Shown: positions 14,635 to 33,746 of the stretch, in pieces
How positions within the stretch are numbered: the stretch's first letter is position 1
Layout of the letters: the number at the start of each line of letters is the position of its first letter
Source of the DNA: a virus
Taxonomy: Duplodnaviria; Caudoviricetes
Strand: one strand, 5' to 3'
DNA length: 61,128 nt
Virus record (IMG/VR): IMGVR_UViG_3300030451_002095
Coordinates: 1-61,128 of that record
Notes under the pieces: generated by a model
Database searches by the model: none
What the model was told of the DNA's origin: nothing
The model's input: only the letters and a program-made list of their open reading frames with translations
Made by a program: the position numbers and the translations under genes

Positions 14635-14636
14635 TA

Positions 14637-18277: not shown

Positions 18278-18281
18278 TTGT

Positions 18282-18567: not shown

Positions 18568-18575
18568 CAAAGTTA
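18568..18575 (-). promoter_or_regulatory. Bacteroidota -7 element TAACTTTG for the replication operon
   Basis: caaagtta on the + strand, intergenic. Confidence 0.5.
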
Positions 18576-18603
18576 TTAAATAAATTACTAACCCCTCCTT
18601 TTT

Positions 18604-18861: not shown

Positions 18862-18863
18862 AA

Positions 18864-19722: not shown

Positions 19723-19723
19723 G

Positions 19724-20056
19724 TTATAAGTTGTCGAATTTTATTTTACCCTCCTCTTCAGCTTTCTTTTCCTCCTCTTTAATTTTCTCTTGAATTTCCT
19801 TACCTAACTCCATATACCAAACCCCAAAATATTCCATTGTATCTTTGTCAGTAGTTGCAGTAGTAAAAATAGGTTGTTCCTTGTATTTAACATTTATAAG
19901 TAGTTGATTTTTATCTTTATTTTCTCCTATATTTTCAATATAATCTACCCATAAAGTAAATCCTTCTTTAGAAGAAATAGAGTTTCCACTCCACTCCTCC
20001 CAAGTAAGTTTTTCTAATTTATTATCTATTAGTTCTGATATGCTTTTTATTTCCAT
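19724..20056 (-). CDS. Hypothetical protein
   Basis: 110-aa ORF tightly packed in the operon. Confidence 0.6.
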   Translation of the reverse strand: MEIKSISELIDNKLEKLTWEEWSGNSISSKEGFTLWVDYIENIGENKDKNQLLINVKYKEQPIFTTATTDKDTMEYFGVWYMELGKEIQEKIKEEEKKAEEEGKIKFDNL

Positions 20057-20057
20057 A

Positions 20058-20669
20058 CTATTTTATTTGTTTAGATAATTCTTTTTTTACCACCGACTTA
20101 ATATTGTATTTAGTCTCTAAATTTTTAACTATTTTAGGTAATCCTAATTCTTTATTAGAAGCGATATACTTTAATACCTTACTCCAGTTTTCATCTCCTA
20201 TATCTAAAGTTATTTTAGTATTAGTTTTTGGTGTAGGAGTTTTACTAACTGCTTGTGAAACTGGTTTAGTCGATACGATAGTGTCTTCTCCTATCCATAA
20301 ACTTAAACCTAATCCGTGCATTGCAATAGCTTTAGCGGTAGATCTTTGTATGGCTGTATTTACATCCATTGAAGTAATTTTTTCCATAGTTATAGAGTTG
20401 TTTCTATAATCCATAACGGGCAGATAATCAATATGCTCCATTCCATTAATTGTTATACCTACTTTTACATAAGCAGTTTTACCATCAGTAAAAAAATTAA
20501 GTCCAGTCTCTTGACATTCATAAACTTTTCTTTGAGCATCTGGGTATTGTGTTTTAATCATACTCCATGCAGTTGCCCATGATAAGTAATCAAACTTACC
20601 TTTCTTATCAGTTTTACCCTTTATAGATATGGATGATAAATCCTTAAAGATGTTTTTCTTTTTTTCCAT
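20058..20669 (-). CDS. Sak/Rad52-like single-strand annealing protein (DUF1071-like)
   Basis: YLSWATAW, YLPVMDYRN, DVNTAIQRSTAKAIAMHGLGLSLWIGED. Confidence 0.88.
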   Translation of the reverse strand: MEKKKNIFKDLSSISIKGKTDKKGKFDYLSWATAWSMIKTQYPDAQRKVYECQETGLNFFTDGKTAYVKVGITINGMEHIDYLPVMDYRNNSITMEKITSMDVNTAIQRSTAKAIAMHGLGLSLWIGEDTIVSTKPVSQAVSKTPTPKTNTKITLDIGDENWSKVLKYIASNKELGLPKIVKNLETKYNIKSVVKKELSKQIK

Positions 20670-21054
20670 TTGTTATTCTATTTAATTGTTTAATTCTATT
20701 TGAGTATTTAACCAACAAAGACTCTCTCCTTGTTTTTAATTTTTTTATATGTTTATCGTTTTTTCTTGTGTTTACTTCATCTCTTATTTTATTTTCTATT
20801 AAGTTTAGTTTTCTTTTGTAGTTCATCATAGATAACCTAACACCACCTTCAACCCATCCATATTTATAAAATAAATCGTACTCCTCTGTATTACACTCTT
20901 GAAAAAAATCCCCACTTCTACTGCAATTTAATATTTCAATTTTAGAGGGGAACTTTTGTATTTTTACCCCATTGTTTATTGCGCTATTTATTGTGGGTTT
21001 TAATGAATGTATATCTTCTCTTGATTGAATAAAAATATCATCCAAATTATACAT
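20644..21054 (-). CDS. Hypothetical protein
   Basis: 136-aa ORF in the operon. Confidence 0.6.
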   Translation of the reverse strand: MYNLDDIFIQSREDIHSLKPTINSAINNGVKIQKFPSKIEILNCSRSGDFFQECNTEEYDLFYKYGWVEGGVRLSMMNYKRKLNLIENKIRDEVNTRKNDKHIKKLKTRRESLLVKYSNRIKQLNRITNGKKEKHL

Positions 21055-21340
21055 TTTGAATTTGTTTTACCACTTGTTCAAAATCTTGATCGTTATCAAT
21101 AAGTTCTTTAGCTTTTTTATATCCATGAATAATAGTGGAGTGAGCAACCTCATGTCCATTTTCTTTCATAAATCTTTGTATGTAAGATATACGGATAGGG
21201 CGCTCCATACACAAGTAGTATAACATTTGTCGGGCATCTACTATCTCTCTCTTTTTTGTTTTAGAAAACATTTGATCTAAAGTCAAATGAAATCTTTTAG
21301 CTATACTGGTAGCATAGTCATCAAAAATATGTTTTTTCAT
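21047..21340 (-). CDS. Second DnaA domain IV-like HTH protein
   Basis: SKTKKREIVDARQMLYYLC...VAHSTIIHGYKK. Confidence 0.75.
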   Translation of the reverse strand: MKKHIFDDYATSIAKRFHLTLDQMFSKTKKREIVDARQMLYYLCMERPIRISYIQRFMKENGHEVAHSTIIHGYKKAKELIDNDQDFEQVVKQIQNV

Positions 21341-21369
21341 ATTATATTTAATTTAATTCAATTAGCCGG

Positions 21370-21401
21370 CTAAGATAATTCTTTTTCAATACTTAACCAA
21401 A
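21370..21401 (-). promoter_or_regulatory. Candidate promoter (TTTG, 20-nt spacer, TATCTTAG)
   Basis: One-mismatch -7 element and a correctly spaced -33 element upstream of ATG 21340. Confidence 0.45.
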
Positions 21402-21418
21402 TTTTGTTTAACTTTTTT

Positions 21419-21724
21419 TTATTTCTTTTCTTTTTTACATTGTACTCTATACAATATAAGGTATCCAATTAAGTCCAGTAAAGTATCTTCTGTTTTATCA
21501 TTTATACCAACTTGTTTAATCCTACTTAATTTATCATCTATTCTTGCCAGTATTCCTTCTTTAGCTGATAATTTAGAAAATATTTTTGGAGGATCGTTTG
21601 CGGTATCTCCGTACGCTTTATTTTTTTCTAACAACAGATACACCACTTCTCTACCTACTTCTTTAATGAGTTCGGATGTGTCTTTATTTACTGGACTTTT
21701 CGAATTTTTTGTTAAATCTTTCAT
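21419..21724 (-). CDS. DUF1599/Nmad1-like protein (all-alpha NTP pyrophosphatase-like fold)
   Basis: KNKAYGD...GILARIDDKLSRI...EDTLLDLIGYLIL. Confidence 0.75.
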   Translation of the reverse strand: MKDLTKNSKSPVNKDTSELIKEVGREVVYLLLEKNKAYGDTANDPPKIFSKLSAKEGILARIDDKLSRIKQVGINDKTEDTLLDLIGYLILYRVQCKKEKK

Positions 21725-21872
21725 GTTTTGCTCTTTTAGTGTTATTATATAATTCTGTTAGTTTTTTATCAAAAACTTTTTTCATTTCTTCTTCATCTAA
21801 AATGATATACCCGTTTTCATCTTCAAAATAATAAACGGGTATTGACAATGTGTGTTTATTTAATTTTTCCAT
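21684..21872 (-). CDS. Hypothetical early protein
   Basis: ORF in the operon. Confidence 0.55.
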   Translation of the reverse strand: MEKLNKHTLSIPVYYFEDENGYIILDEEEMKKVFDKKLTELYNNTKRAKHERFNKKFEKSSK

Positions 21873-22218
21873 AATTTTTATCTTTTTGATTTGATTTGTG
21901 TCTGTGTTTAATCCACCTTATACTCATGTGATCTCTCATTTTATCTACCATAGGATTTTTTCTTACCCACTTTTCATACTCTTTATATGTTCCTTCTTTT
22001 GTTATCTCAACCTTGCCACTATATTTGAAATAGTCATCAAACTCTATTGTGTTTTGTTTATACAAATCTCGTAAAAAATTTCTTTGTTTAACTTCGGCTA
22101 TAAAATTTTTAACTAAATCTTTATCGGTTAATTGTTGTAAAAAACGAATGTAATCCCTATCTCTGTCTTTAGTAGGTTTTAATTTTTCTTTTAGTATTTC
22201 TTTATTTATTTCTTTCAT
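21856..22218 (-). CDS. Hypothetical early protein
   Basis: ORF in the operon. Confidence 0.6.
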   Translation of the reverse strand: MKEINKEILKEKLKPTKDRDRDYIRFLQQLTDKDLVKNFIAEVKQRNFLRDLYKQNTIEFDDYFKYSGKVEITKEGTYKEYEKWVRKNPMVDKMRDHMSIRWIKHRHKSNQKDKNYGKIK

Positions 22219-22332
22219 ATATATTTTTTTGGTTATTAAAAAAATAAGGTAAAAGGTGGGTATCGCAAATGATTTCTCTCTTATTAAGTGTATAGTAGGT
22301 AATTACTCTACAACCCTTACACGCCTTATATA

Positions 22333-22554
22333 TTACTCATCTCTCATATCTTCTAAATAGTTCTCTCTTTGTATAGCTTCATATTCGTAGTCCTCTATCT
22401 CCTCACAATACTCATTACATTCACTACATAATAATTTATCCTCATCAAACATTTCACTATATATTTCCTCATATTCTGCCCCACAACAACTACTTACCAT
22501 ACCACATCCCCCATCATCAATGGGATTACTTAATTTCCAGTTATCATAATTCAT
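22333..22554 (-). CDS. Small Cys-rich (zinc-ribbon-like) acidic early protein
   Basis: VSSCCGAE...CSECNEYC. Confidence 0.65.
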   Translation of the reverse strand: MNYDNWKLSNPIDDGGCGMVSSCCGAEYEEIYSEMFDEDKLLCSECNEYCEEIEDYEYEAIQRENYLEDMRDE

Positions 22555-22781
22555 ATCAGTTCTATATTTTGAGGATCTATATATTCAGGGTGTTCATTCT
22601 CATCCTCTACATCAAAATACCATATAGGTATATCTCCAGTGTTGTCTAACATTCCTTGTAGAGTAATAATTACTTTCCCCTCTTGTATTTCTTCAGCTAT
22701 ATATTTTCCCCAGTAAAGATAATCATCTTTATCTTGGAACATATAATCTATAAATTTACCTCTCTCTAATTTGTATTTCAT
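22551..22781 (-). CDS. Hypothetical early protein
   Basis: ORF with ATGA overlap to the next gene. Confidence 0.6.
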   Translation of the reverse strand: MKYKLERGKFIDYMFQDKDDYLYWGKYIAEEIQEGKVIITLQGMLDNTGDIPIWYFDVEDENEHPEYIDPQNIELI

Positions 22782-22786
22782 TTTAT

Positions 22787-23509
22787 TTAATTTTCAGTTT
22801 TATCAATATATTCTTTAGCTTCCTCTAATGTTTTTCCACAATACTCTTGTCCCCACTCTAAATAATATCCAACCCCACTCTCATAATTTGGATGATCATC
22901 CAGTAATTTTACTAAATTATAATCTTTATAATCTATCGGTTCTTCCCAGTTAGGATAATCATAATTAAAACAATGTATGTTTTCTCCATCTTCAAAATCG
23001 TATTCTCCTCCCCACTCTTGTTCCTCTTGAAAACGATATTGTATATTAGGAAAATCTTTTAATAACATATCTAAAACATTTTCTCCAATAGGGCTCCACG
23101 CACTTTCAAACTTCAACTCTCCATATTCCTCCCTTTTTCTGTGTGGATGTTGTGTTATTTCTATTTCTAAATCACAATCTCCCCACTTTGTCCCCCAGTT
23201 ATTATTACTCCAATCATACCAATTATTTGTTCCATACTTTGTAATTAGATTATCGTTTATCTCTTGTGTAATTGAACGATCTAAAAAGTGTTCTCCTTTT
23301 AATTCTTTCTCTTTATTTTTAATTTGTATCTCATCATATTCTTTTTGAGAAACAATACTTACTGGACTTCTTGTCTCGGTAATTTCTTGTGGTCGTGGTA
23401 TGTAATAATTACATATTGAACCTACTTTTTCTATCTTTTTTAATATCTCTTTCTGTTTTTTTGTAAGTGGAGTAGATATTGTTATCCCACTATAAACCCA
23501 GTTCGGCAT
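22787..23509 (-). CDS. YubB/DUF1281-like (ferredoxin-like fold) protein
   Basis: MPNW start, WYDWSNNNWGTKW, FESAWSP. Confidence 0.8.
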   Translation of the reverse strand: MPNWVYSGITISTPLTKKQKEILKKIEKVGSICNYYIPRPQEITETRSPVSIVSQKEYDEIQIKNKEKELKGEHFLDRSITQEINDNLITKYGTNNWYDWSNNNWGTKWGDCDLEIEITQHPHRKREEYGELKFESAWSPIGENVLDMLLKDFPNIQYRFQEEQEWGGEYDFEDGENIHCFNYDYPNWEEPIDYKDYNLVKLLDDHPNYESGVGYYLEWGQEYCGKTLEEAKEYIDKTEN

Positions 23510-23536
23510 TTTTATTTAATTTTAATTGGTTAATAA

Positions 23537-23791
23537 TTATATTACTGGTATTGTTTGTAGTTCTGAAATTGTAGTTTGTATTGAACCCCCATCATTCCCC
23601 TCATCATCCATCATAGGTATTAACCAATGTCTATTGTCTAAACAAATTGCTATCGGTTTTTTATACCACATGTTCTCTTCCATTTCATCATCTCCAATAT
23701 ATTCTACTTTTGTTATTGTTTTACCGACTAAATGTTTTGATATTAAGTCAGTCCAGTATTTTTCTACTTCTTGTTTACTATAATTTTTCAT
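23537..23791 (-). CDS. Hypothetical early protein
   Basis: LVGKTITKVEY...DDEGNDGG. Confidence 0.65.
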   Translation of the reverse strand: MKNYSKQEVEKYWTDLISKHLVGKTITKVEYIGDDEMEENMWYKKPIAICLDNRHWLIPMMDDEGNDGGSIQTTISELQTIPVI

Positions 23792-23806
23792 TTTATTTAA
23801 TTTTAG

Positions 23807-23905
23807 TTATATATATTGTCTTATTAGTTTAATTTTTTCTGTATCTGTCAATTCTTCATTATCCAATATATTTATTAGATAACATTCAAATTCTTCTGTA
23901 TTCAT
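23807..23905 (-). CDS. Unannotated 32-aa early ORF
   Basis: Manual translation MNTEEFECYLINILDNEELTDTEKIKLIRQYI; AT-rich leader; fills the gap. Confidence 0.45.
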   Translation of the reverse strand: MNTEEFECYLINILDNEELTDTEKIKLIRQYI

Positions 23906-23919
23906 ATCTATATTTAATT

Positions 23920-24108
23920 TTAATTGTTTTTATATAATTCATAAGTATCGTTTAACACATCCATCATATCTGTTTTATGTTTACTTTCTATCAATGTTTT
24001 AATTAACCACTCTAATTCTCCGTAAGGATCACAACAATCTTCTCTAAACCATTTTACATAATTATCTATTTTATCATCAATGTCTATTTCTTTAATTTCT
24101 TTTTTCAT
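23920..24108 (-). CDS. Hypothetical early protein
   Basis: ORF in the operon. Confidence 0.55.
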   Translation of the reverse strand: MKKEIKEIDIDDKIDNYVKWFREDCCDPYGELEWLIKTLIESKHKTDMMDVLNDTYELYKNN

Positions 24109-24110
24109 AT

Positions 24111-24542
24111 CTATTTAATTTTAGTTATTATACTACTTAAAGTTTCTTTGTGTAGTTCACTAATACATTCATCATTGTCTTCTAAATCTTCTGTTAATAT
24201 ATCTACAAGAAAATCCTTTTCATAATTAGTGAGTTCTTTATTTTGATTGTCTCTATATTTAATTTTTTCTATTTGTATTGTCCCACTATTTATCATTTCC
24301 CAAACTTCTTCCCAGTTCCCCTCATCCATCTCCCACTCAATATCATCCCTTTTGTATTTTGTCCCAAAATTACTAAATGATTGAGGATGGGTAGATATTT
24401 TATAATCTCCATCAATTTTTTTTACACTCCATCTGTATTTGTTATCACACATTACAGACACTACATCAATTTTTATTTCTCTTGGGTTTCCCTCTACTTT
24501 TAATACTGGAGGATCTAACCTTAATTTATGATATAAACTCAT
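24111..24542 (-). CDS. Hypothetical early protein
   Basis: 143-aa ORF with no alanine. Confidence 0.65.
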   Translation of the reverse strand: MSLYHKLRLDPPVLKVEGNPREIKIDVVSVMCDNKYRWSVKKIDGDYKISTHPQSFSNFGTKYKRDDIEWEMDEGNWEEVWEMINSGTIQIEKIKYRDNQNKELTNYEKDFLVDILTEDLEDNDECISELHKETLSSIITKIK

Positions 24543-24544
24543 TT

Positions 24545-24643
24545 TATTTTATTTTTAGTTAATTTATTTATTGTCTTATGGATATATTTCATCCATTCTG
24601 TATAACTCTTATTGGTATTGGTACCAACTTTTTTTACTCTCAT
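24545..24643 (-). CDS. Unannotated 32-aa early ORF
   Basis: Manual translation MRVKKVGTNTNKSYTEWMKYIHKTINKLTKNK; fills the gap. Confidence 0.45.
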
Positions 24644-24656
24644 AGGTTTTAATTTT

Positions 24657-25076
24657 TTATTCATCACAAAACTTTTTGAACTCCTCAACATTTCCGTTAA
24701 ATACTTCTTTGTTGTTAAAGTTATATACTTTTACTTTTATTCCATGACTACTACTTCCCTCTATAATATATTCAAAGTCCTCCCATTCTCTTTTTGTGTT
24801 TGGGTTTTGAACATATATATTACCTATTCCATCCTTAAATTCTGAAATAAGTTCAGCTCCTAAACAACCCATTCCGTTATTTACTTTTTCTTTCATATCA
24901 TCTATTCTAAATCCGTTTGTAATTCTTCTGTTTTCTAAAAAGTCGGATAGTTCTTTTCCGTGTCCACTTGGATAACCATCATATTGTCTGTACATACAAA
25001 CAATGTTTTCTTTTTTAATTCTGTTGTCTTCTCCTTTGTAGGTTTCTATAACCTTTGTTAATGATCTTGTTCCCAT
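24657..25076 (-). CDS. Conserved phage hypothetical protein (MGTRS...YRQYDGYP type)
   Basis: MGTRS N-terminus and MYRQYDGYPSGHG motif. Confidence 0.7.
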   Translation of the reverse strand: MGTRSLTKVIETYKGEDNRIKKENIVCMYRQYDGYPSGHGKELSDFLENRRITNGFRIDDMKEKVNNGMGCLGAELISEFKDGIGNIYVQNPNTKREWEDFEYIIEGSSSHGIKVKVYNFNNKEVFNGNVEEFKKFCDE

Positions 25077-25103
25077 TTTATTTGATTTTAATTGATTACT
25101 ATT

Positions 25104-25379
25104 TTAACTATATAATACTTCATGTCCCTCTCCATCTTCACAACCCAGTAATATGTATATATATTCTGTGTCTAAAAATTCTTGTATTGTCGGTTCATAC
25201 CCCCAGTCGTTTTGAATATCAAACTTATATCTTTCATATAGTTCTGTTACTTCATCCATATCGTTGAAATATACTTCTTGTGTATTTTCATCTTTGTTCA
25301 AATATCCAATACTTAACATAGGTTCTAAATATGTTCCGATCGGTTTTGTAAATTCGTTTAATTTAATTTCTGTTTTCAT
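25104..25379 (-). CDS. Hypothetical early protein
   Basis: ORF in the operon. Confidence 0.6.
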   Translation of the reverse strand: MKTEIKLNEFTKPIGTYLEPMLSIGYLNKDENTQEVYFNDMDEVTELYERYKFDIQNDWGYEPTIQEFLDTEYIYILLGCEDGEGHEVLYS

Positions 25380-25552
25380 TTTATTATTTTTTTTGTGTTA
25401 TCTATTCCATTAAAATTGTTTACTACTATTTTACATACATTAGTAATTATTTCTTGTTCTTTATTACCTACTTCTTCATCTATACCATCAAGGTAAGTAA
25501 GTAAATCTTGTTGTATCTGTTCTTTAAGTTCGTTTAATTCTTTTGTGTTCAT
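25376..25552 (-). CDS. Hypothetical early protein (start re-called at MNTKEL)
   Basis: The longer call (to 25606) runs through a promoter; ATG 25552 has the usual A-rich leader. Confidence 0.55.
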   Translation of the reverse strand: MNTKELNELKEQIQQDLLTYLDGIDEEVGNKEQEIITNVCKIVVNNFNGIDNTKKIIK

Positions 25553-25574
25553 TTTATTTAATTTTAATTTTTTA

Positions 25575-25606
25575 CAAATGTATAATAAAATTTTAATACA
25601 AGTCAA
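25575..25606 (-). promoter_or_regulatory. Early promoter (TTG, 21-nt spacer, TACATTTG)
   Basis: caaatgta at 25575-25582 and caa at 25604-25606 on the + strand. Confidence 0.55.
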
Positions 25607-25625
25607 GTTTTTGTTTAATTATTTT

Positions 25626-25862
25626 TTATATTGTGTATATTACTTCAAGTAATTTGTAAAGAATATATCCAAAAATTAGTAAAAATACACTCATTCCTAC
25701 TCCAAAAATTACACACTCTTGTATAAATTTTGGTAAATTTTTCTTAAACATTTCCCAGTCCTTTTGATCTTTTTTAGTCCAATCTAATTCATTTACAATT
25801 TTATCTGACTTTTCTTTGTCTGACAATTTATTCCATTTATTTAATTTATCTACTCGTGTCAT
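25626..25862 (-). CDS. Small membrane-anchored early protein
   Basis: C-terminal hydrophobic helix VIFGVGMSVFLLIFGYILY. Confidence 0.6.
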   Translation of the reverse strand: MTRVDKLNKWNKLSDKEKSDKIVNELDWTKKDQKDWEMFKKNLPKFIQECVIFGVGMSVFLLIFGYILYKLLEVIYTI

Positions 25863-25863
25863 T

Positions 25864-26316
25864 TTATTTAATTTTAATTGTATAATGTTCTCCCATTGGG
25901 CTGTCGTGGTGGGAAATTTTTACTTTATATTCTTTTTCTTTTACTTTTTCTATTTTGTAAGTCAAATCACAATTAGGAATAATCTTGTAAAATATATCCT
26001 CTCCTCTTTCAAGTGTAAATTCTTTATATCCAGTTCGGTTTCTCCATCCCATATTTCTTCCCTCAACATGAACCTCACAATCTACATAATCCATAAACTC
26101 CTCATTCAAATCGTATAAAAATTGTTCTGAATGTGTTTCGTACAAATACTCATCATTCATAAAATGATCCTCGATTTCTTCATCAGTTATACTCTCTACT
26201 TCTCTATCTTCATCCCATAATATACTCACAAGAAATTCTTGTTTGTTTTCTTTGAAAAAGTCAATTTCACTCTGTAAAAATTCACTTTCATCATATTGTG
26301 TTTTCCAGTTTTCCAT
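25864..26316 (-). CDS. Hypothetical acidic early protein
   Basis: 150-aa ORF with GRNMGWRNRTG and SHHDSPMGE motifs. Confidence 0.65.
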   Translation of the reverse strand: MENWKTQYDESEFLQSEIDFFKENKQEFLVSILWDEDREVESITDEEIEDHFMNDEYLYETHSEQFLYDLNEEFMDYVDCEVHVEGRNMGWRNRTGYKEFTLERGEDIFYKIIPNCDLTYKIEKVKEKEYKVKISHHDSPMGEHYTIKIK

Positions 26317-26320
26317 AATT

Positions 26321-26593
26321 TTATTTATTTAAGTTAGTCAATTTATATTCTTTTGTCTCAATCTTTTTTTCGGTTTCTTGTTTACTTTCTCCTAAAAATA
26401 TATTTCTATATTTTCCCGTAGTTGTTGAATAGTCCCAGTAATACTCATCTAAATACATTTTTCCGTTTTTATTCATACATATTATACTATCATAACTTTG
26501 AAATATGATTACTCCTTTTGTTTCAATGATAAACTGGTTTTTAACCTCTTTACCACTATGTCCGATTATGTTTCTTACTTTTGGTATTTTCAT
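26321..26593 (-). CDS. Conserved phage early hypothetical protein
   Basis: NQFII...FQSYDSII...WDYSTTTGKYRNIFL motif. Confidence 0.7.
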   Translation of the reverse strand: MKIPKVRNIIGHSGKEVKNQFIIETKGVIIFQSYDSIICMNKNGKMYLDEYYWDYSTTTGKYRNIFLGESKQETEKKIETKEYKLTNLNK

Positions 26594-26605
26594 TTTATTT
26601 AATTT

Positions 26606-26884
26606 TTAATTGTTAATATAATCTTCTAATTCTTCAACCTCATATCCTATTAAATATGTTCTTTTATCCTCTACTAAGTCGTGTATCATTTCTTTTCTTC
26701 CTACATTTTCTAATTCTTCTATCTTATAATCTAAACAAAACCACCCTATATAATCGGTTTGTAAATCTTTATTGTTTAGATTGTTTAGTTCTTTTTCGTA
26801 TTTTTCAAGACATGTTTCTCTTAAAATTTTATGATAATCTTCATTATCTAAATAATACTTTATTCGTTCTAATTTTATATACAT
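26606..26884 (-). CDS. Hypothetical early protein
   Basis: ORF in the operon. Confidence 0.6.
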   Translation of the reverse strand: MYIKLERIKYYLDNEDYHKILRETCLEKYEKELNNLNNKDLQTDYIGWFCLDYKIEELENVGRKEMIHDLVEDKRTYLIGYEVEELEDYINN

Positions 26885-26887
26885 AAT

Positions 26888-27082
26888 TTATTTATTTTTT
26901 TGATTTATAATTCTTTGTCTTTCGATATATAAACTATCTAATTGATAGTTGTGTTCGTTCCATAAATCATCAACCTTTTTATCTATTTTTATTAGTTGTG
27001 TTTGTTGTTGTGTTGTTAGGTTTCCAACCCCACAGGATGTAAGGAATATACTCCCCACGATCAAAAATTTTATTTTTTTCAT
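26888..27082 (-). CDS. Small putative lipoprotein
   Basis: MKKIKFLIVGSIFLTS-C signal peptide II pattern. Confidence 0.65.
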   Translation of the reverse strand: MKKIKFLIVGSIFLTSCGVGNLTTQQQTQLIKIDKKVDDLWNEHNYQLDSLYIERQRIINQKNK

Positions 27083-27086
27083 TTTA

Positions 27087-27263
27087 TTAGTTTTTTAAGT
27101 AGTTTAATAATTCAGTTAAGTTCAAATAATAAGTAGTCCATCCATCTACAAAACAATTTACTTCCCATTCGTTTGTATTTAATCTTATTATTTCTTTTGT
27201 TGAAAGTCCTCTTTTGATTTCGAGGTGTTCTCCCATATTCATTGATAAAAGTTTTTGTCTCAT
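27087..27263 (-). CDS. Unannotated 58-aa early protein
   Basis: Manual translation MRQKLLSMNMGEHLEIKRGLSTKEIIRLNTNEWEVNCFVDGWTTYYLNLTELLNYLKN; fills the gap exactly. Confidence 0.6.
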   Translation of the reverse strand: MRQKLLSMNMGEHLEIKRGLSTKEIIRLNTNEWEVNCFVDGWTTYYLNLTELLNYLKN

Positions 27264-27264
27264 T

Positions 27265-27624
27265 TTAGAAAGGTTTTATTTCGTTATAGAATTCTTTTAT
27301 TTGTTCCTTACTCATTTCAATATCATAACTATCTGTTAATTCTCTGTTCCATACTGATAACCAAATTGTGTTGGTCTGTTCGTTTACCCATGTGTCCAAG
27401 TTGTATTGTTCGTTAATATAGTCGGATGTTCGTTCTAATTGTGTAGGGTTTAACTCTTTGTTTTCTTTTTCCAGTATTTTCAGAACCTCGATACAGTGTT
27501 CGATTTTCTCCTCATCATCCCACAACATTAAAGATTTTTGATACTGGATGTTTGATAGTGTTGTTTCCAGTCGTTGTCTAACTGATTTGATATCACAATC
27601 AATCAATAAATTTTCTTTTTCCAT
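27265..27624 (-). CDS. Hypothetical early protein
   Basis: 119-aa ORF in the operon. Confidence 0.6.
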   Translation of the reverse strand: MEKENLLIDCDIKSVRQRLETTLSNIQYQKSLMLWDDEEKIEHCIEVLKILEKENKELNPTQLERTSDYINEQYNLDTWVNEQTNTIWLSVWNRELTDSYDIEMSKEQIKEFYNEIKPF

Positions 27625-27628
27625 AATT

Positions 27629-27790
27629 TTATTTATTTAAGTTTTGGTATAAAAATTTTATATAGTTTTTTTCAAATGTCTCTAAATTTTGGTATTGTTC
27701 CTTAAAGTACATGTGTTTGATATTTACTGGTATTTGGTTTTTATTTAACCATATTAACCAATCTTCAAAATGATAAATTTTTGTTTCCAT
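27629..27790 (-). CDS. Unannotated 53-aa early protein downstream of hammerhead HH-B
   Basis: Manual translation METKIYHFEDWLIWLNKNQIPVNIKHMYFKEQYQNLETFEKNYIKFLYQNLNK. Confidence 0.6.
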   Translation of the reverse strand: METKIYHFEDWLIWLNKNQIPVNIKHMYFKEQYQNLETFEKNYIKFLYQNLNK

Positions 27791-27816
27791 AAATTTTTTA
27801 ATTTATATTAGTATTT

Positions 27817-27911
27817 GTTATTGACTGGGGGAAGTTTACCTGTGTACCTCTTTCGTGTACCTTATTCGTTATCCCCCAGTTTCGGACAATATCAGTCCTC
27901 ATCAGAATAAC
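27817..27911 (-). ncRNA. Type I hammerhead ribozyme (HH-B)
   Basis: Minus strand reads GUUAUU-CUGAUGA-GGAC(UGAUAUU)GUCC-GAAA-CUGGGGGA(39-nt loop)UCCCCCAG-UC-AAUAAC; all core nucleotides, three stems and a GUC triplet; predicted cut between 27823 and 27822. Confidence 0.93.
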
Positions 27912-28084
27912 TATTTAATAACCTCGACAAACTCCATACTCTTAAACTCCTCTTTTAACTTTTCGTTTATCTCTTTTACTAACTCAATTTCACATCTTTC
28001 ATAAAATTTGATTAGTCCCTTATTTTTAGGGTTGTTTTCCTGTCTCAATTCTTTTAGAATTTTTTTACATTGTAATAAAGTCAT
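27911..28084 (-). CDS. Unannotated 57-aa protein between the two hammerheads
   Basis: Manual translation MTLLQCKKILKELRQENNPKNKGLIKFYERCEIELVKEINEKLKEEFKSMEFVEVIK; leader TTAAAAAGTTATG shared with 28520 and 28775; its TAG stop overlaps stem I of HH-B. Confidence 0.7.
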   Translation of the reverse strand: MTLLQCKKILKELRQENNPKNKGLIKFYERCEIELVKEINEKLKEEFKSMEFVEVIK

Positions 28085-28109
28085 AACTTTTTAATTTTTA
28101 TTAGTGTTT

Positions 28110-28212
28110 GTTATTGACTACAAAGAGAAGTATTGAGATGAAATGTTCTTAAGGGTATTATTGAGAACCTCTCTTTGTAGTTTCGGACATTTTTAGTCCT
28201 CATCAGAATAAC
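28110..28212 (-). ncRNA. Type I hammerhead ribozyme (HH-A)
   Basis: Minus strand reads GUUAUU-CUGAUGA-GGAC(UAAAAAU)GUCC-GAAA-CUACAAAGAGA(loop)UCUCUUUGUAG-UC-AAUAAC; predicted cut between 28116 and 28115. Confidence 0.93.
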
Positions 28213-28214
28213 TT

Positions 28215-28520
28215 TTATTCTCTATCAAATGGAATGTCTAACTCATTACATAGATCCAAACCGAACCAGTAGACAAGATGATTTACTAATTTTTCGTTAT
28301 CTTCAAAAGTCGTTTGTATTTCTCCAAACTCTTTATATTCTCTTATATTACAAATCATAACTCCCTCTCTTTCTCCTATGTTGTGAAGTTTTAACCACTG
28401 GGTGGCGTTGTGGTAACCGATTATATAATAATCTTCATTGAACATTGTAAAATGATTTTGGTCATCTGTATTAAAATTGTTGATGTGTTCGAGTAGTTCT
28501 TTTCTAACTGATTTTTTCAT
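28215..28520 (-). CDS. Hypothetical early protein
   Basis: FNEDYYIIGY...EKLVNHLVYWFG; stop lies 2 nt before HH-A. Confidence 0.65.
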   Translation of the reverse strand: MKKSVRKELLEHINNFNTDDQNHFTMFNEDYYIIGYHNATQWLKLHNIGEREGVMICNIREYKEFGEIQTTFEDNEKLVNHLVYWFGLDLCNELDIPFDRE

Positions 28521-28806
28521 AACTTTTTAATTTTAGTATTATTATTCGTTTTATCTGTTCTCGTATTCTTCAAAATCTAATCCGATACACTCACAAAGAA
28601 ACTCCTCTTCGAACCAAAATAAATCGTTTATTTCTGTTTCTGTTGGTGTTCTGTCGTGGTATAAATCCTCTAAATGAAACTCAATCTCTTTTAATTCGTT
28701 GTAGGTGAATTCGTGTTGTTTTCCTCCACTCCAAAAATTGAAGTTTGTCAAATCTAAATTTTTTGTGTAGTTCATAACTTTTTAATTTTAGTATTATTAT
28801 TCGTTT
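28516..28806 (-). repeat. Identical 36-bp leader/start repeat at 28516-28551 and 28771-28806
   Basis: ttcataactttttaattttagtattattattcgttt occurs twice, spanning the leaders and starts of the first two early genes. Confidence 0.9.
28551..28775 (-). CDS. First early gene, conserved-looking acidic hypothetical protein
   Basis: FNFWSGG...TETEINDLFWFE. Confidence 0.65.
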   Translation of the reverse strand: MNYTKNLDLTNFNFWSGGKQHEFTYNELKEIEFHLEDLYHDRTPTETEINDLFWFEEEFLCECIGLDFEEYENR

Positions 28807-28816
28807 AATTATTGTA

Positions 28817-28849
28817 CAAATATAGTATAAAACTATTTAATAAAACAAA
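28817..28849 (-). promoter_or_regulatory. Main early promoter (TTTG, 21-nt spacer, TATATTTG)
   Basis: Matches the Bacteroidota -33/-7 consensus; faces the early operon. Confidence 0.75.
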
Positions 28850-28890
28850 CTTTTTTTAACTTTTTTTTGTCCCAGTATGAAAATAATTTT

Positions 28891-28915
28891 TAAGTTATTG
28901 ATTTACAACAACTTA
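28891..28915. promoter_or_regulatory. Imperfect palindrome containing an IHF-consensus site
   Basis: TAAGTTATTGATTTACAACAACTTA; reverse strand AATCAATAACTTA matches WATCAANNNNTTR. Confidence 0.5.
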
Positions 28916-28929
28916 CAGAGAAAAAAAAA

Positions 28930-29210
28930 TTGTGTTTTTTTGGTGTTTTGTTTGTGTTTTGGGGGTTTCGTTGGGGTGTTATCCTCTTTCTTTCTTTGTC
29001 TAAATACTTTTATTTAGTCAATAATTGGAACGAGGGAAGGACAAACAGAGGACAAAAGGAACGGACAGAGGACAGAACAAGGACACAAGGACAGACAGAC
29101 AGAGAGACAAACAACCAACCAACCAGACAACCAGAACCCCCACCAAAAAACCCAAAAAAATCGGACTGGAAATTTTGAAAACAACACCCCACCCCCCAAA
29201 AAACAAAACG
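28930..29210. other. Non-coding strand-switch region with extreme base asymmetry; candidate genome end or packaging locus
   Basis: No A in 28930-28980; no T in 29027-29160; six GGACA repeats; central hairpin at 29000-29017. Confidence 0.55.
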
Positions 29211-29281
29211 ATTTCCGAACACGACATGTCGGTGTATGACTATATATAACCCTTAACCCCTAAACATCTAAAAAAATTTTA

Positions 29282-29289
29282 TATCTTTG
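29282..29289 (+). promoter_or_regulatory. -7 element TATCTTTG
   Basis: Upstream of ATG 29305. Confidence 0.6.
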
Positions 29290-29304
29290 TAAAAAAATAA
29301 AAAC

Positions 29305-29586
29305 ATGAATTGTGGTTGCGGAAATAATCCTTGTAAAACCTACGGATCAAAAAAAACAAACGATATGAAATTTAAAATGAACAACCCTTTTGGGAAAGAC
29401 GATTATGTTGACGGGTTATATGTTGACGGTGGTAGATTAGTAAATGATAGAAGAGACGGAGAGACGGGTATAGCAAGAATGTCTCGTATAAAAAGAGCAA
29501 TTAAAAACGATAGAAAGATAAATAGAATAGCTGAGGGTATTCAATTAGCTGAAGATAAAAAGAACTGGAACGAACTTATGTTCTAA
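29305..29586 (+). CDS. Hypothetical protein, first gene of the plus arm
   Basis: ORF with its own promoter and terminator. Confidence 0.65.
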   Translation: MNCGCGNNPCKTYGSKKTNDMKFKMNNPFGKDDYVDGLYVDGGRLVNDRRDGETGIARMSRIKRAIKNDRKINRIAEGIQLAEDKKNWNELMF

Positions 29587-29614
29587 AGACTTCCCATTTG
29601 TTCTGTTGTGAAAA

Positions 29615-29647
29615 GGAGGTAAGACATTCTGTCTGCCTCTTTTTTTT
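29615..29647 (+). terminator. Rho-independent terminator
   Basis: gaggtaagaca-ttc-tgtctgcctc hairpin plus T run. Confidence 0.7.
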
Positions 29648-29664
29648 ATATATATGTTTAATAC

Positions 29665-29845
29665 CGACACAAGATTCCACTTTGTAAAAAAAAACGACAC
29701 AAGCTAACTTATTGATTTTCAATATTATATTTTTATTTATGTCGATATGTCGATTTCAAGTCTAAAATATATAAAAATATATATACACTAAAAAGAGATA
29801 ATATATATATATAATTACAAAAAATTTTTTCGACATACCGTCACA
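29665..29845. promoter_or_regulatory. Origin-like locus B with the same architecture as locus A
   Basis: CGACACAAG x2, IHF-consensus site at 29705, TATGTCGA x2 at 29738 and 29746, AT-rich core, TCGACATA at 29830. Confidence 0.55.
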
Positions 29846-29865
29846 ATTGTATTTATTATTTTTTA

Positions 29866-29873
29866 TATCTTTG
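29866..29873 (+). promoter_or_regulatory. -7 element TATCTTTG for groEL
   Basis: Upstream of ATG 29906. Confidence 0.6.
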
Positions 29874-29905
29874 CTTCAAATTAATTTTAATTAAATCACA
29901 ACATA

Positions 29906-31492
29906 ATGAAAGAACAAGGATACATTCCAAAAGACCTCTCTTTTGATAATGAGGCAAGAGAAAAATTAATATCGGGAATCTCTAAAATATCTAACGCAGT
30001 TAAATCAACTCTCGGCCCTCAAGGGCAAACTGTATTGATAGAATCAACAGAACACACTCAAGGATTAACTGTAACTAAAGACGGAGTAACTGTAGCTAAA
30101 TCAATATTCCTTATTGACCCAATAGAGAACCTTGCGGTTAGGATGATGAAACAAGCTTCAGAGAAAACAGCTAACACAGCTGGAGACGGTACAACTACTG
30201 CGATTGTTTTAACTGAGGCTTTGGTTAAGGCTGGGGAGAAATATATAGAGGCAGGGATGAGTACTATTAATGTAGTTAGGAAAATAAGGGAGATTGGTGA
30301 GGAGATAATTAAGAAAATAAAAAAAGAATCTATAGAGGTTACCGAGCAAATGCTTGCGGACATAGCAACCATATCTGCTAACAACGATAAGGAGATTGGT
30401 GATATTATAGCAAAGTCTTATAAAGAAGTAGGTCGTGATGGTATAGTAACGGTTGAGAGATCTCAAACTGACGAAACTTATGCGGAGGTTACTAATGGTA
30501 TAAAGGTGGATAGAGGATGGACATCTCCACTTTTTATTAATGATCAAAGAAAAGATGAGTGTATATATGATAATGTAAAGATTCTTATATGTGATGCTGA
30601 GATTAATAATATATTACAAATTGAGAATGTTCTTAAACCAATTATTAATGCAGGAGAGAAGTTATTAATTATTGGAGACTGTTCTCAAAATGTTATTAAT
30701 ACTATGGCTGCCAATGTTCAGCGTAACGGATTAAAGTTTTGTAATATAAAACCACCTTCATTTGGATACAAGACTCATGAGTTGATGCAGGATATTGCAT
30801 TTGCTGTAGGAGCTAAATACTTTTCAGAAAAGACTGGAGATGATTTATCTCTAATTAGACCAGAAGATTTAGGTCATGCAGATAAAATAATAGCAGGTAA
30901 AGATTCAACTATTATTATTAAGGACGGTGATATTGGTGAAGAGACTATAAAAAGAGTAGAAGAACTTAGAGAACAACAACAAAGATTAACAGCTAAACAT
31001 GAGAAAGACTTTATTAATGAAAGAATAGCAAGTTTAGTTGGAGGGATAGGATGTATATATGTAGGGGCCACTTCTGATATAGAGCAAAAAGAAAAATTTG
31101 ACCGAGTCGATGACTCGGTATGCGCGGTGCGCAGTGCCTTACAAGAAGGCATTGTTCCTGGGGGAGGATTACTTCTACATACTATAGCTCAAAAATATAA
31201 AGGTGATGATATAGCTAATAAAATAATGAAAGAAACTTTAGAAGCTCCATTAACTCAAATATTAAAAAACGCTGGATTATGTAAAGATGACATATATCAT
31301 AAGGCTGATAATTTACAAAAGAATGTAGGGTATAATGTTGTTACCAGAGAGTACGGAAATATGTTTGACATGGGGGTAGTTGATCCGGCCAGAGTTACTA
31401 TACAAGCATTAAGTAATGCTATTAGTGTAGCTACAACTATACTTACTACTAACGCTATAGTTACTCACGCAAGAATACATACTGATTCGTGA
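29906..31492 (+). CDS. groEL: Phage-encoded chaperonin GroEL
   Basis: AVKSTLGP, TKDGVTVAK, AGDGTTTA, ATISAN, GIVPGGG, GVVDPARV; lacks the GGM tail. Confidence 0.95.
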   Translation: MKEQGYIPKDLSFDNEAREKLISGISKISNAVKSTLGPQGQTVLIESTEHTQGLTVTKDGVTVAKSIFLIDPIENLAVRMMKQASEKTANTAGDGTTTAIVLTEALVKAGEKYIEAGMSTINVVRKIREIGEEIIKKIKKESIEVTEQMLADIATISANNDKEIGDIIAKSYKEVGRDGIVTVERSQTDETYAEVTNGIKVDRGWTSPLFINDQRKDECIYDNVKILICDAEINNILQIENVLKPIINAGEKLLIIGDCSQNVINTMAANVQRNGLKFCNIKPPSFGYKTHELMQDIAFAVGAKYFSEKTGDDLSLIRPEDLGHADKIIAGKDSTIIIKDGDIGEETIKRVEELREQQQRLTAKHEKDFINERIASLVGGIGCIYVGATSDIEQKEKFDRVDDSVCAVRSALQEGIVPGGGLLLHTIAQKYKGDDIANKIMKETLEAPLTQILKNAGLCKDDIYHKADNLQKNVGYNVVTREYGNMFDMGVVDPARVTIQALSNAISVATTILTTNAIVTHARIHTDS

Positions 31493-31803
31493 CAAAAAAA
31501 TATTATAAAAAGCAGTGGGTTATTGTTTATCTTAATATTAATGATGTAAAAGGGGATTACGATGACTTTTCTTTTTCAGATTTAATAAAAAAAGATAGAT
31601 CATACGACTGGACGAGACTACTGTATGATATAGATAAAGAAGGATTAAAAGAGTTAATTGAGGTGGAGAAAAAAGATTCACATTATAGAGTAACACAAGG
31701 AAACCATAGGTTAAAGGTTTTACAATATTTATATCCACCTAATAATACATTAAGATTTAAATTAAAAAGACATGAGACCAATTGGCAAGTACATTGTAAT
31801 TAA
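31489..31803 (+). CDS. ParB/Srx-like domain protein
   Basis: YRVTQGNHRLKVL resembles the ParB/Srx GxxR motif; overlaps the groEL stop and groES start. Confidence 0.5.
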   Translation: MTKKYYKKQWVIVYLNINDVKGDYDDFSFSDLIKKDRSYDWTRLLYDIDKEGLKELIEVEKKDSHYRVTQGNHRLKVLQYLYPPNNTLRFKLKRHETNWQVHCN

Positions 31804-32029
31804 AACAATTAAAGAAGAATTAAAAACAGAATCAGGATTATTACTATCTAATGAAGATGCAAGCAGCTTTAGATATAAAAAAGGAAAGGTAGTAAAGCCA
31901 GGAACCGATGTTTCAGTAATCAATACAGACGATGTTATATATTATGATGGAGCGTCAGGTCACCAGATGTTAATAGAAGACAACCCTTACACGATTATCA
32001 CTGAGCGCGATGTCGTTGTTGTCTTATAA
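31772..32029 (+). CDS. groES: Co-chaperonin GroES
   Basis: MRPIGKYIVI...KTESGLLL...GKVVKPG...IITERDVVVVL. Confidence 0.9.
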   Translation: MRPIGKYIVIKTIKEELKTESGLLLSNEDASSFRYKKGKVVKPGTDVSVINTDDVIYYDGASGHQMLIEDNPYTIITERDVVVVL

Positions 32030-32468
32030 ACTTATTCATCTCTATAATCATATTACGATAAACTTTATCCATATAAGAAGCATCGTGTCTAAATAAAGGA
32101 TTATATTCCGGACTTTCTCCTATTTCTTCTCCATTTAACTTCTTATATATAGTGTTAACCATACGTTTACCTTTGTAAGATAACTCATAAAGAGTTGTTT
32201 CTTTACCCTTTCTTTTTCTCCATACATGTATATATCCTTGATTTAGAAGTTTATAGAACCGAGGCTCGTCCCAAGACATACACTGTTCAAACTCTTTAAA
32301 TTTAGTTTTGTTAAAGATATGTTCGCTATAAAGGAAAAATAGCATATCTATATCTGGAGTTCCGACTTTGTATTTGGCTTTAGCCCAATACCTTATCACC
32401 CTCCAATATTTCATATAGTCGTGCGAGGGCTGAACTCTATCGTAGTTTTTTCTTACTGTATTTGACAT
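31998..32468 (-). CDS. Putative winged-helix DNA-binding protein
   Basis: FYKLLNQGYIHVWRK...LYELSYKGK resembles a MarR-like wing; has its own promoter; the only minus gene in the plus arm. Confidence 0.55.
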   Translation of the reverse strand: MSNTVRKNYDRVQPSHDYMKYWRVIRYWAKAKYKVGTPDIDMLFFLYSEHIFNKTKFKEFEQCMSWDEPRFYKLLNQGYIHVWRKRKGKETTLYELSYKGKRMVNTIYKKLNGEEIGESPEYNPLFRHDASYMDKVYRNMIIEMNKFIRQQRHRAQ

Positions 32469-32747: not shown

Positions 32748-33101
32748 ATGCCAACAGTTACAGTAAACGGAAAGAAAAAAACATTCCCCTATAATGCAGT
32801 AGGTAAAGCTCAGGCGGATGCTTACGCAAGATTACATGGGGGTAAAAAGAAAAACAATCCCGGACCTAAAAGCGAGGTAAAGTCTTCTAAAAATAAAAGT
32901 AAATTAGATAAAGACATAGAAGAAAACAAGAACAAGAAAAAAGACACAAAGTTTGCTGATCAAATATATAGAAAATCAAAAGTAGACAAGAGTCTTGAAA
33001 AAGAAGGGTACCATACAGCTAAAGGTATTAGGGGAACAAAAAAATCAAAGTATCATGAAACAGGCATGGGTAATATGTCTGGAACATCAATGTTTAGTTA
33101 A
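32748..33101 (+). CDS. Basic protein; N-terminus paralogous to 37260..37415
   Basis: FPYNAVGKAQAD motif. Confidence 0.7.
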   Translation: MPTVTVNGKKKTFPYNAVGKAQADAYARLHGGKKKNNPGPKSEVKSSKNKSKLDKDIEENKNKKKDTKFADQIYRKSKVDKSLEKEGYHTAKGIRGTKKSKYHETGMGNMSGTSMFS

Positions 33102-33113
33102 AAATATAAAACT

Positions 33114-33746
33114 ATGCCAGATCCTAAAAAGAAATATAGAAAACCATTTGGTGGGCCTACAGTAAAAAAGAAAACCACTATTAAGTCTCCAGCTACTCTT
33201 AAAAAAGAAAAAAAGGAAAGAGAGAAAAAAGCTATTGACGCTAAAAGAGCAGCGCAAGAGAAAAAAGCTGAAACAAAAAATAAAGAAAGATTAGAGAAAA
33301 TAGAAAAGAAAAGGTTGTTGAAGAAGTATGATATAGAGGGGAAGACGGCAAAGAAAAATAAAAAAGCTAAAGAAAAAGAAAAGAAAAGAACAGAAAACAA
33401 GCAAGCGAAGTTTGATAAGATAAACGCGAAGATTACTGCCTTACAAGAAAATAAAGAGCTAACTAAAGAAGTTAGGGATAAAAAAATAAAATCTTTAAAA
33501 GACAGAAAAGATAAGATTCGTAAAAAAGCATTAGACCGAAACATTAAGGCTGATAAAAAGCTTATTAAGAGAGAGGGAGACGCGGTAACTAAAAAAACAA
33601 AAAATGAAGAGAGGTCTCGAAAAAGAGTAAAAAGGTCTAAAACTAAAATGGACCGACAAAAAAGAAGAGCTCTTAAGAGGTCCAATCGTAAAAAAAGAAT
33701 GCAAGCGGTAACGGGTATTAAGCGTTGGGACAAAACTTGGAACTAA
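33114..33746 (+). CDS. Extremely Lys/Arg-rich protein (210 aa)
   Basis: Composition; collinear with the operon. Confidence 0.65.
   Translation: MPDPKKKYRKPFGGPTVKKKTTIKSPATLKKEKKEREKKAIDAKRAAQEKKAETKNKERLEKIEKKRLLKKYDIEGKTAKKNKKAKEKEKKRTENKQAKFDKINAKITALQENKELTKEVRDKKIKSLKDRKDKIRKKALDRNIKADKKLIKREGDAVTKKTKNEERSRKRVKRSKTKMDRQKRRALKRSNRKKRMQAVTGIKRWDKTWN

Follow-up and report, generated by a model that had tools for sequence, protein, structure and literature searches.

A GpC-depleted, nearly alanine-free early region in the genome of a marine podophage

The virus record IMGVR_UViG_3300030451_002095, analysed here over its complete length of 61,128 nt (hereafter the window), is the full 61-kb genome of a marine podophage and includes an early gene region from which the dinucleotide GpC has been almost completely purged. 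Between positions 23651 and 29317 (5,667 nt; A1586 C959 G585 T2537) there are 3 GpC, at 24856, 25900 and 28405, where base composition predicts about 99, which corresponds to an observed/expected (o/e) ratio of 0.03 compared with 1.07 in the remaining genome. This GpC desert covers 9% of the genome and holds its four longest GpC-free gaps (2505, 1207, 1044 and 913 nt), the fifth longest being 406 nt, and the proteins that it encodes contain hardly any alanine. The interpretation favoured here, with a probability of roughly 60%, is that the desert reflects restriction avoidance confined to DNA that is exposed early in infection, similar to the first-step transfer (FST) region of phage T5 and pushed to the level of a dinucleotide. 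Site-free first-entering DNA is textbook knowledge for T5 and T7, where it concerns sites of 5-8 bp. The kind of phenomenon is thus a known one, while its degree, the purging of a dinucleotide at the cost of an amino acid, is not; literature searches, with supplementary files outside their scope, returned no phage in which avoidance at the level of GpC, or early proteins devoid of alanine, had been reported.

Size, edges and nucleic-acid level of the depletion

A sequence-only reading of this DNA had reported the same three GpC and a GpC-free run of about 2.5 kb, and a recount returned identical positions and the 2505-nt gap. That reading also held that other G+C dinucleotides are retained, which is the case: CpG occurs 72 times in the desert, with an o/e ratio of 0.73 compared with 0.70 elsewhere, and GG and CC are unremarkable. 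The depletion is both regional and polar. At its right edge, the first GpC (29318) falls in codon 5 of the first plus-arm open reading frame (ORF; 93 aa, 29305-29586, plus strand), in which TTTAAA also resumes, at 29371. The left edge is gradual, with 4, 8 and 14 GpC per kb at 23-24, 22-23 and 21-22 kb, respectively, and about 30 per kb in the late arm, so that the return of GpC in the first plus-arm gene and its slow leftward recovery, both described earlier by eye, stand as described. The gradient zone (21000-23650, no strand) contains 25 GpC that are spread over 13 NGCN contexts without a clear preference, and the 3 GpC left in the desert and the 7 in the semi-desert of a related genome (G006) have no context in common; no target narrower than GpC emerged.

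The desert core (23651-29317, no strand) was evaluated by counts and by codon resampling, in which the actual proteins were held fixed and synonymous codons were redrawn 500 times from the usage of the other genes, with two codon tables. Resampling predicts 13.6-15.8 GpC at codon positions 2-3 and 21.2-22.1 at codon junctions (about 36 in total); the observed numbers are 1 and 0, and none of the 500 resamples reached a count of 1 or fewer with either table. The same bias is visible in individual codons of the desert ORFs, where cysteine is encoded by TGT 30 times and by TGC never (131:36 elsewhere), none of 69 glycine codons is GGC, and one of 62 serine codons is AGC. GpC avoidance therefore acts on nucleic acid and is not explained by protein composition, in agreement with the earlier proposal of selection on nucleic acid rather than protein, and the non-coding DNA discussed below is equally free of GpC.

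Two trivial causes were considered and rejected. AT-richness does not account for the desert, which is depleted well beyond equally AT-rich DNA: the early regions of relatives with a GC content of 28-29% carry 73-122 GpC per 5.65 kb. An assembly artefact is contradicted by contigs of two sequencing runs that are possible source samples (X1 and X5) and of a run from another study (X7), which carry pieces of the region with 0 differences. The two hammerhead ribozymes that the sequence-only reading placed in the region were not recovered; there is no Rfam match at gathering score across the window, and a search of 21000-30000 at E<=5 gave TMV_UPD-PK1 and sR17 alone, which are unrelated and at chance level.

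The two gene arms of the genome diverge from a 529-nt non-coding stretch (28776-29304, no strand), the divergent control region, which is T/G-rich on the left and A/C-rich on the right and in which there are 9 CpG and 0 GpC where 11.6-13.1 GpC are expected. A predicted Bacteroidetes-type promoter (TTG-N21-TAnnTTTG, 28817-28848, minus strand) lies just upstream of the first early ORF, and a predicted -7-type box (TAnnTTTG, 29282-29289, plus strand) lies 16 nt upstream of the first plus-arm ORF, both being assigned by consensus match. The approximately 400 nt between these predicted promoters have a G+C content of 36.6%, 8 CpG, and 0 GpC compared with 12-13 expected, and the homologous 530 nt in two non-desert relatives (G005 and G004) contain 14 GpC each. 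GpC reads the same on both strands, so that strand offers no means of telling selection on DNA from selection on RNA, and it is the GpC-free spacer between the consensus-predicted promoters that makes a good but not final case for avoidance at the level of DNA rather than mRNA.

The RNA-level alternative is that early mRNAs avoid an endoribonuclease that cuts at GC until an early protein blocks the RNase. MqsR-like toxins, for example, cut RNA at GCU. This alternative is very improbable; it draws on the uninformative strand and on the coincidence of the desert with one transcription arm, and is countered by the spacer between the predicted promoters, which is as free of GpC as the genes, by the loss of every GCN context rather than of GCU or GCA alone, and by the avoidance of palindromes in the same arm (see below), which points to recognition of double-stranded DNA.

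Alanine loss in the early proteins

The 20 ORFs of at least 30 aa that lie between 23807 and 28775 contain 2 Ala in 1,593 residues. The sequence-only reading had likewise counted 2 Ala, in 18 ORFs with about 1,490 residues. The wider block of 21 small early ORFs taken from the ORF list (23537-28775, minus strand) contains 3 Ala in 1,656 residues (0.2%), compared with 6.7% in the other genes. These leftward-transcribed ORFs encode mostly acidic proteins, many with an isoelectric point (pI) of 4-5, and the first of them are small and acidic, with pI values of 4.2 and 4.9; the first two lie at 28551-28775 and 28215-28520. None of the early ORFs searched gave a Pfam, PHROGs-function or PADLOC match.

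How far the purge has gone is illustrated by an early protein of 139 aa (24657-25076, minus strand), whose sole alanine, A74, corresponds to the GpC at 24856. The phage family to which the protein belongs is large (1,433 database matches) and uncharacterised, has no Pfam family, and has an invariant N-terminus (MGTRS). In an alignment of 50 sequences, A74 is the only invariant alanine (49/49), and the four columns in which the majority of homologs have alanine (44, 66, 73 and 78) are occupied in the window by S, N, G and S, respectively. A single alanine is found in 7 of the 120 best homologs, and 2-15 in the other 113. The retention of only the invariant alanine suggests that the purge stopped only where function forbids the loss. 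The remaining GpC at 25900 and 28405 are not invariant across the desert genomes. An AlphaFold model of the 139-aa protein has a predicted local distance difference test score (pLDDT) of 95 and a predicted template modelling score (pTM) of 0.90, and a Foldseek comparison of the fold with the PDB gave a best E of 0.1 and TM values of at most 0.29, with a best E of 0.15 in a PDB sequence-profile search; on the basis of the model, the protein may represent a new fold of phage early regions.

The fate of alanine was followed in six early protein families that have members in both desert and non-desert genomes. Where a non-desert homolog has alanine, the desert protein has Ile, Leu, Met, Gly, Glu, Lys or Ser. 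Of 49 aligned cells at homologs' alanine positions, 6 keep GC, and none has become GT (Val) or AC (Thr). Outside alanine codons, GpC has been replaced in the desert by the change of NGC codons to NGT or TCN, and G|C junctions have mostly become A|C. These patterns bear on mutational decay, by which methylation and deamination of the cytosine in GpC would erode it to GpT or ApC, much as CpG is eroded in vertebrates. GT is indeed enriched on the plus strand of the desert (o/e 1.34, compared with 0.86 elsewhere), but AC is not (0.94), the two residues that such decay should leave at former alanine positions are absent from all 49 cells, and the replacements that are found require one or two changes of several kinds. 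Decay also sits poorly with a regional depletion that has a sharp edge and with a 139-aa protein in which the one alanine kept is the invariant one, and this explanation is scarcely credible. The aligned sequences indicate that GpC was lost by selection, not by mutation.

The outcome is a set of approximately 20 proteins stripped of alanine with only irreplaceable residues left, or, from the standpoint of protein chemistry, a natural collection of alanine-free variants of proteins whose homologs hold 2-15 Ala. At the edge of the gradient zone, an acidic protein of 240 aa (22787-23509, minus strand) has a weak match to DUF1281_C (ferredoxin-like, Api92-like) and, in the Atlas, clusters with viral DUF1281-like proteins; its 2 retained alanines are conserved in all four aligned homologs. 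An Atlas search with a 150-aa protein gave nothing.

Missing palindromes, related genomes and the early-exposure reading

Type II restriction enzymes recognise short palindromes, and it is palindromes that are missing from the early arm along with GpC. Of the 186 six-mers that should occur at least 6 times in the desert, only 3 are missing, each of them a palindrome: TTTAAA (0 observed, 15 expected), ATTAAT (0/10) and AATATT (0/10). ACGT is likewise absent (0/11), and TCGA is kept (8/9). Outside the desert, the observed and expected numbers are 81/98 for TTTAAA, 64/55 for ATTAAT, 69/55 for AATATT and 57/100 for ACGT. TGCA and GGCC are also lacking in the early arm, and the six palindromes missing there are near their expected frequency elsewhere in the genome, with the exception of ACGT and GGCC, which are moderately depleted. 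Several palindromes that are frequent elsewhere in the genome are thus purged from the early arm. A regional, polar depletion that is co-located with palindrome avoidance is what restriction pressure on early-exposed DNA, as proposed from the sequence, predicts.

Each of these words has its own site-free zone, and every zone contains the desert. The zones extend over 12637-30153 for AAGCTT (17.5 kb), 13822-30014 for GGCC (16.2 kb), 15396-29371 for TTTAAA, 18924-32163 for ACGT, 20445-29880 for ATTAAT, 20922-30649 for TGCA (9.7 kb), 21366-31385 for CCGG and 21579-29721 for AATATT, with GpC as the core (23649-29318) and 12637-32163 as the envelope of the whole nested series. The left edges are spread over 11 kb, and the right edges all fall within 29.3-32.2 kb. 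Four further palindromes are absent from the entire genome (CTAG, 0 of about 190 expected; ATGCAT, 0/12; CATATG, 0/11; TACGTA, 0/9). A purge of some words genome-wide and of others in the early arm only is as expected if the phage disarms some host systems, and not others, after early expression, and CTAG, ATGCAT, CATATG and TACGTA are apparently the words that it cannot neutralise.

Related loci were collected with three anchors, GroEL (51 loci), the annealing protein (80) and the 139-aa early family (80), and ten related records were compared. Seven of these are 99-100% complete; completeness is 71% for G003 and 75% for G004, and the analysis covered G007 except for 613 nt. GpC-free stretches of at least 1 kb occur, among 274 loci (3.5 Mb, with redundancy), only in the window, in G001 and a near-identical second contig of G001, and in G002. 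The GroEL of G006, a more distant relative, is 68% identical to that of the window, and this genome has a semi-desert with 7 GpC in about 2.9 kb at the two contig ends, its contig being broken inside the early region; it may represent an intermediate stage of the purge. Possession of the desert does not follow terminase kinship, as two relatives with 90% (G003) and 89% (G005) identity lack it and one with 84% (G002) has it. The desert modules are homologous, with 75-88% nucleotide identity, and between the window and G002 the early proteins are 88-100% identical and the structural proteins 26-75%. A near-identical early module on diverged structural genes suggests that the module moved between backbones. 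No gene outside the early arm was convincingly exclusive to the desert genomes in a matrix of presence and identity. The desert is accordingly confined, among these relatives, to a single homologous early module, and the relatives have purged other palindromes.

Of 195 palindromes that could be tested in the early 8 kb across 12 genomes, 28 are depleted, as are 140 of 5,552 words that are not palindromic; the late arm, taken over 24 kb, gives 47 of 344 and 535 of 14,028, respectively, and the words differ from the early set. These counts treat every record as a circle, a simplification that does not strictly hold for G003 and G004, which are incomplete. Words purged from early arms include GTAC in G001 (0/18), GTAC and ATTAAT in G007 (0/15 and 0/13) and AATATT in G003 (0/14). 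Word statistics of this kind suggest that a purge of early-arm palindromes is general across the group and that the list of words is specific to the lineage. Some avoidance is also genome-wide: CTAG is absent from all 11 marine genomes (127-198 expected), and the freshwater phage MW202828 has 153 CTAG, 0 GATC and, locally, 0 CCGG. CATATG and TACGTA are both absent from the four desert and semi-desert genomes (window, G001, G002 and G006) and from none of the 7 other marine relatives, which suggests that the desert phages may meet a common repertoire of host defences.

Phage T5 provides the closest precedent, since it resists restriction-modification (R-M) systems of Types I, II and III, as well as CRISPR and Ssp systems, provided that their sites are absent from the FST region, according to PMC10644984. 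As in the FST DNA of T5 and BF23, a contiguous block of early genes in the window is free of sites that occur often elsewhere in the sequence. T5 differs in that particular 6-bp sites are missing, whereas here a whole dinucleotide has been purged at the cost of an amino acid and the zones are nested and graded instead of ending at a single stop. It also has an 8% terminal repeat and a defined injection stop; neither a long terminal repeat nor a stop signal was identified in the window, which is an unrelated 61-kb podophage with a probable marine Bacteroidota-type host. In T7, by contrast, entry is gradual and coupled to transcription, and an acidic first product, Ocr (gene 0.3), disarms restriction. 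The small, acidic first ORFs of the window and the fading of GpC depletion away from the promoter end recall T7; the window differs in that no Ocr or ArdA homolog and no recognisable RNA polymerase of its own turned up among the proteins searched. Avoidance of sites over a whole genome, as is known from phages, has its likeness in the loss of CTAG and GATC described above, but the GpC purge is regional and concerns a 2-bp word. Sensing of CpG by ZAP and TLR9 in vertebrates forces viral recoding, including at synonymous sites, and shares with the case described here the reading of a bare dinucleotide; the two cases belong to different domains of life and differ in the dinucleotide and in the molecule that is read, and the purge in the window, at an o/e of 0.03, is confined to one small part of the genome, unlike CpG depletion in vertebrate viruses.

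Since a cut anywhere kills the phage and avoidance is regional, only that region should be at risk, and its exposure should be limited in time. Under the favoured reading, the early arm would be the DNA that is exposed in the cell before the anti-restriction functions of the phage accumulate, either through progressive, T7-like entry that begins at an end around 29.3 kb or through a first step like that of T5, and restriction sites would matter only inside this arm. Hosts of the lineage would carry one or more nucleases for which each GpC is a liability, and the removal of GpC would have cost the early proteins almost all of their alanine. The order in which the DNA enters, an early protein that neutralises the agent and the nature of the GpC reader are inferred, and the graded recovery of GpC together with the nested zones appears to fit gradual entry from about 29.3 kb better than a single stop. 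The GpC depletion itself proved stronger than the sequence-only reading had described, and the interpretation given there, of leading DNA shaped by a host system until an early protein neutralises it, is supported in part.

The same framework of early-exposed DNA can do without a single GpC reader if the desert is the summed footprint of many GC-containing R-M specificities encountered by a mobile early module. Such a footprint is unlikely; in its favour, TGCA, GGCC and AAGCTT have larger free zones of their own, AGCT is missing from stretches of 2.2-2.6 kb in the early arms of the non-desert genomes G003, G005 and G004, the early module has travelled between backbones as described, and the semi-desert of G006 is of intermediate depth. 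However, in a reference section of the minus arm (12.5-21 kb) only 35 of 167 GpC (about 21%) lie in AGCT, TGCA, GGCC or CGCG, and the other NGCN contexts have been purged from the desert just as fully. CpG, moreover, is no more depleted in the desert than in the genome at large, and TCGA is kept, so the purge is specific to GpC and is not a general removal of G+C sites. For these reasons an agent for which GpC itself is the liability is tentatively preferred over the footprint of many systems. In its most specific form, which is a possibility held with some reserve, this reading supposes that some marine Bacteroidota-type hosts have a defence that reads bare GpC on incoming DNA, a two-base non-self sensor or nuclease and prokaryotic analogue of vertebrate CpG sensing, which acts in the first minutes of infection, is disarmed by an early phage protein and has been answered by one mobile, GpC-free and near-alanine-free module.

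Restriction avoidance in early-exposed DNA faces several points that weigh against it. The three full deserts appear, from their homology, to be the product of one evolutionary origin and not of three, and kinship among the genomes also weakens the count of shared CATATG and TACGTA loss. None of the early proteins searched matched an anti-restriction family or proved to be a homolog of Ocr or ArdA. Nor did the proteins searched include a nuclease candidate or a methyltransferase, such as one that would protect the late arm, with most structural proteins and many small ORFs outside the Pfam search. GpC is itself a palindrome of 2 bp, but to our knowledge there is no bacterial restriction system that reads bare GpC and no R-M system with a 2-bp site, and literature searches, again with supplementary files outside their scope, returned no report of a bacterial system reading bare GpC. 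The zones for ACGT, CCGG and TGCA in the window, and for GTAC and TTTAAA in G001, overrun by 1-3 kb into the plus arm, which a physical end at 29.3 kb does not predict, though each overrun taken singly has only weak significance. Contigs of four runs carry no molecule starts or ends, and so give neither virion termini nor entry order, and the promoters that bound the 'untranscribed' spacer are consensus matches alone. The only enzymes that we can name as recognising 2-3 bp centred on GC are R.CviJI (RGCY) and M.CviPI (GpC); these are enzymes of eukaryotic Chlorella viruses, and we know of no bacterial counterpart.

Two further alternatives invoke an agent other than host restriction. The first is self-immunity: an early phage product would degrade host DNA at GpC sites while only the GpC-free arm is inside the cell, and the remaining genome would enter, or gain protection, later. 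This arrangement would answer the puzzle of how FST DNA survives in T5, where the means by which T5 and BF23 escape degradation of their own DNA are stated to be unknown in PMC10644984. Six early ORFs occur in desert genomes only and none has an assignable function, which leaves room for such a product, yet no nuclease fold or family was found among the early ORFs searched. Self-immunity also leaves unexplained the lineage-specific avoidance of palindromes in the same arm and the genome-wide loss of CATATG and TACGTA that the desert genomes share, and is improbable. The second alternative is a reader that is not a nuclease, either a small molecule that binds DNA selectively at GpC, as actinomycin-type compounds intercalate at GpC, or host methylation of GpC that blocks early transcription. 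It is barely plausible. PMC13250531 reports that DNA intercalators halt T5-like infection after first-step transfer, but also that actinomycin D was inactive on all phages tested. A reader of this type would not explain the co-located avoidance of AT-only palindromes, and later genes, which are transcribed too, keep normal GpC.

If restriction of early-exposed DNA is indeed the cause, the purge points to a host activity with GpC-level specificity that is undescribed in bacteria, and the early arm is a place to look for new anti-restriction proteins. The nested zones may be a record, legible in the sequence by itself, of the DNA that is exposed early; if they are, they would predict the virion end, the mode of entry, and which host systems are neutralised and which are not.

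The surrounding genome

The window is a complete record whose ends overlap by 53 nt; this 53-bp end repeat sits away from the control region at 28.8-29.3 kb and resembles an assembly overlap. The large terminase, portal and structural proteins match PHROGs families. A tblastn search with the terminase gave 89 phage records. Flavobacterium 'elemo' phages account for 68 of these and Cellulophaga phages for 15, with a few phages of other Flavobacteriia, and the nearest terminase relative is MW202828, a freshwater metagenomic podophage, at 74% identity. Judging by phage kinship alone, the host is probably a marine member of the Flavobacteriia.

The control region has some features of its own. Between 28850 and 29250, GGACA/GACA-like low-complexity repeats occur in the A/C-rich half, and the two halves have an imperfect inverted symmetry. 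Eight of the 51 related contigs end in the spacer, and these ends were not accepted as virion termini, being scattered over 28.86-29.19 kb of low-complexity DNA. A spike in read depth at 29016-29349 (about 1,068x in run X7 and 102x in X9) was likewise rejected as a terminal signal, as it sits on the GGACA/GACA-like repeats and is read as foreign k-mers. The segment 28850-29250 may serve as an origin or a terminal region, or may simply be a low-complexity stretch at which assemblies break.

The minus arm runs from 28775 down to 12521, beginning with the approximately 21 small ORFs and continuing with recombination and replication genes. The latter encode a Sak-type annealing protein, a PDDEXK exonuclease, a primase-helicase, an SNF2-type helicase, a VRR-NUC protein and two DnaA-C-like helix-turn-helix proteins; no DNA or RNA polymerase was recognised among the proteins searched, with replication genes at 14637-18277 and 18985-20669 (minus strand). 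No tRNA genes were found in the window. The plus arm starts with the 93-aa ORF, followed by a GroEL homolog and then by lysis and structural genes, and extends round to 12.5 kb.

The GroEL homolog (29906-31492, plus strand) is full-length at 528 aa, lies soon after the divergent control region, and has relatives that are 62-88% identical. The annotation of MW202828 places Cpn10 beside GroEL, and the 104-aa ORF that follows GroEL in the window (31489-31803) has no Pfam match. An ORF of 211 aa on the minus strand (33098-33733) has a low-complexity translation rich in L, F and S and a homolog in no relative; it is probably not a gene, and the opposite strand or the interval may hold something else. 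A further ORF encodes 2,813 aa (3845-12286, plus strand) and has no Pfam, PHROGs, PADLOC or PDB sequence match, so that nothing in these searches supported the idea of a virion RNA polymerase. Parts of this protein are only 29-63% identical in relatives, the counterpart in MW202828 has 3,859 aa, and it may be an ejected or internal virion protein.

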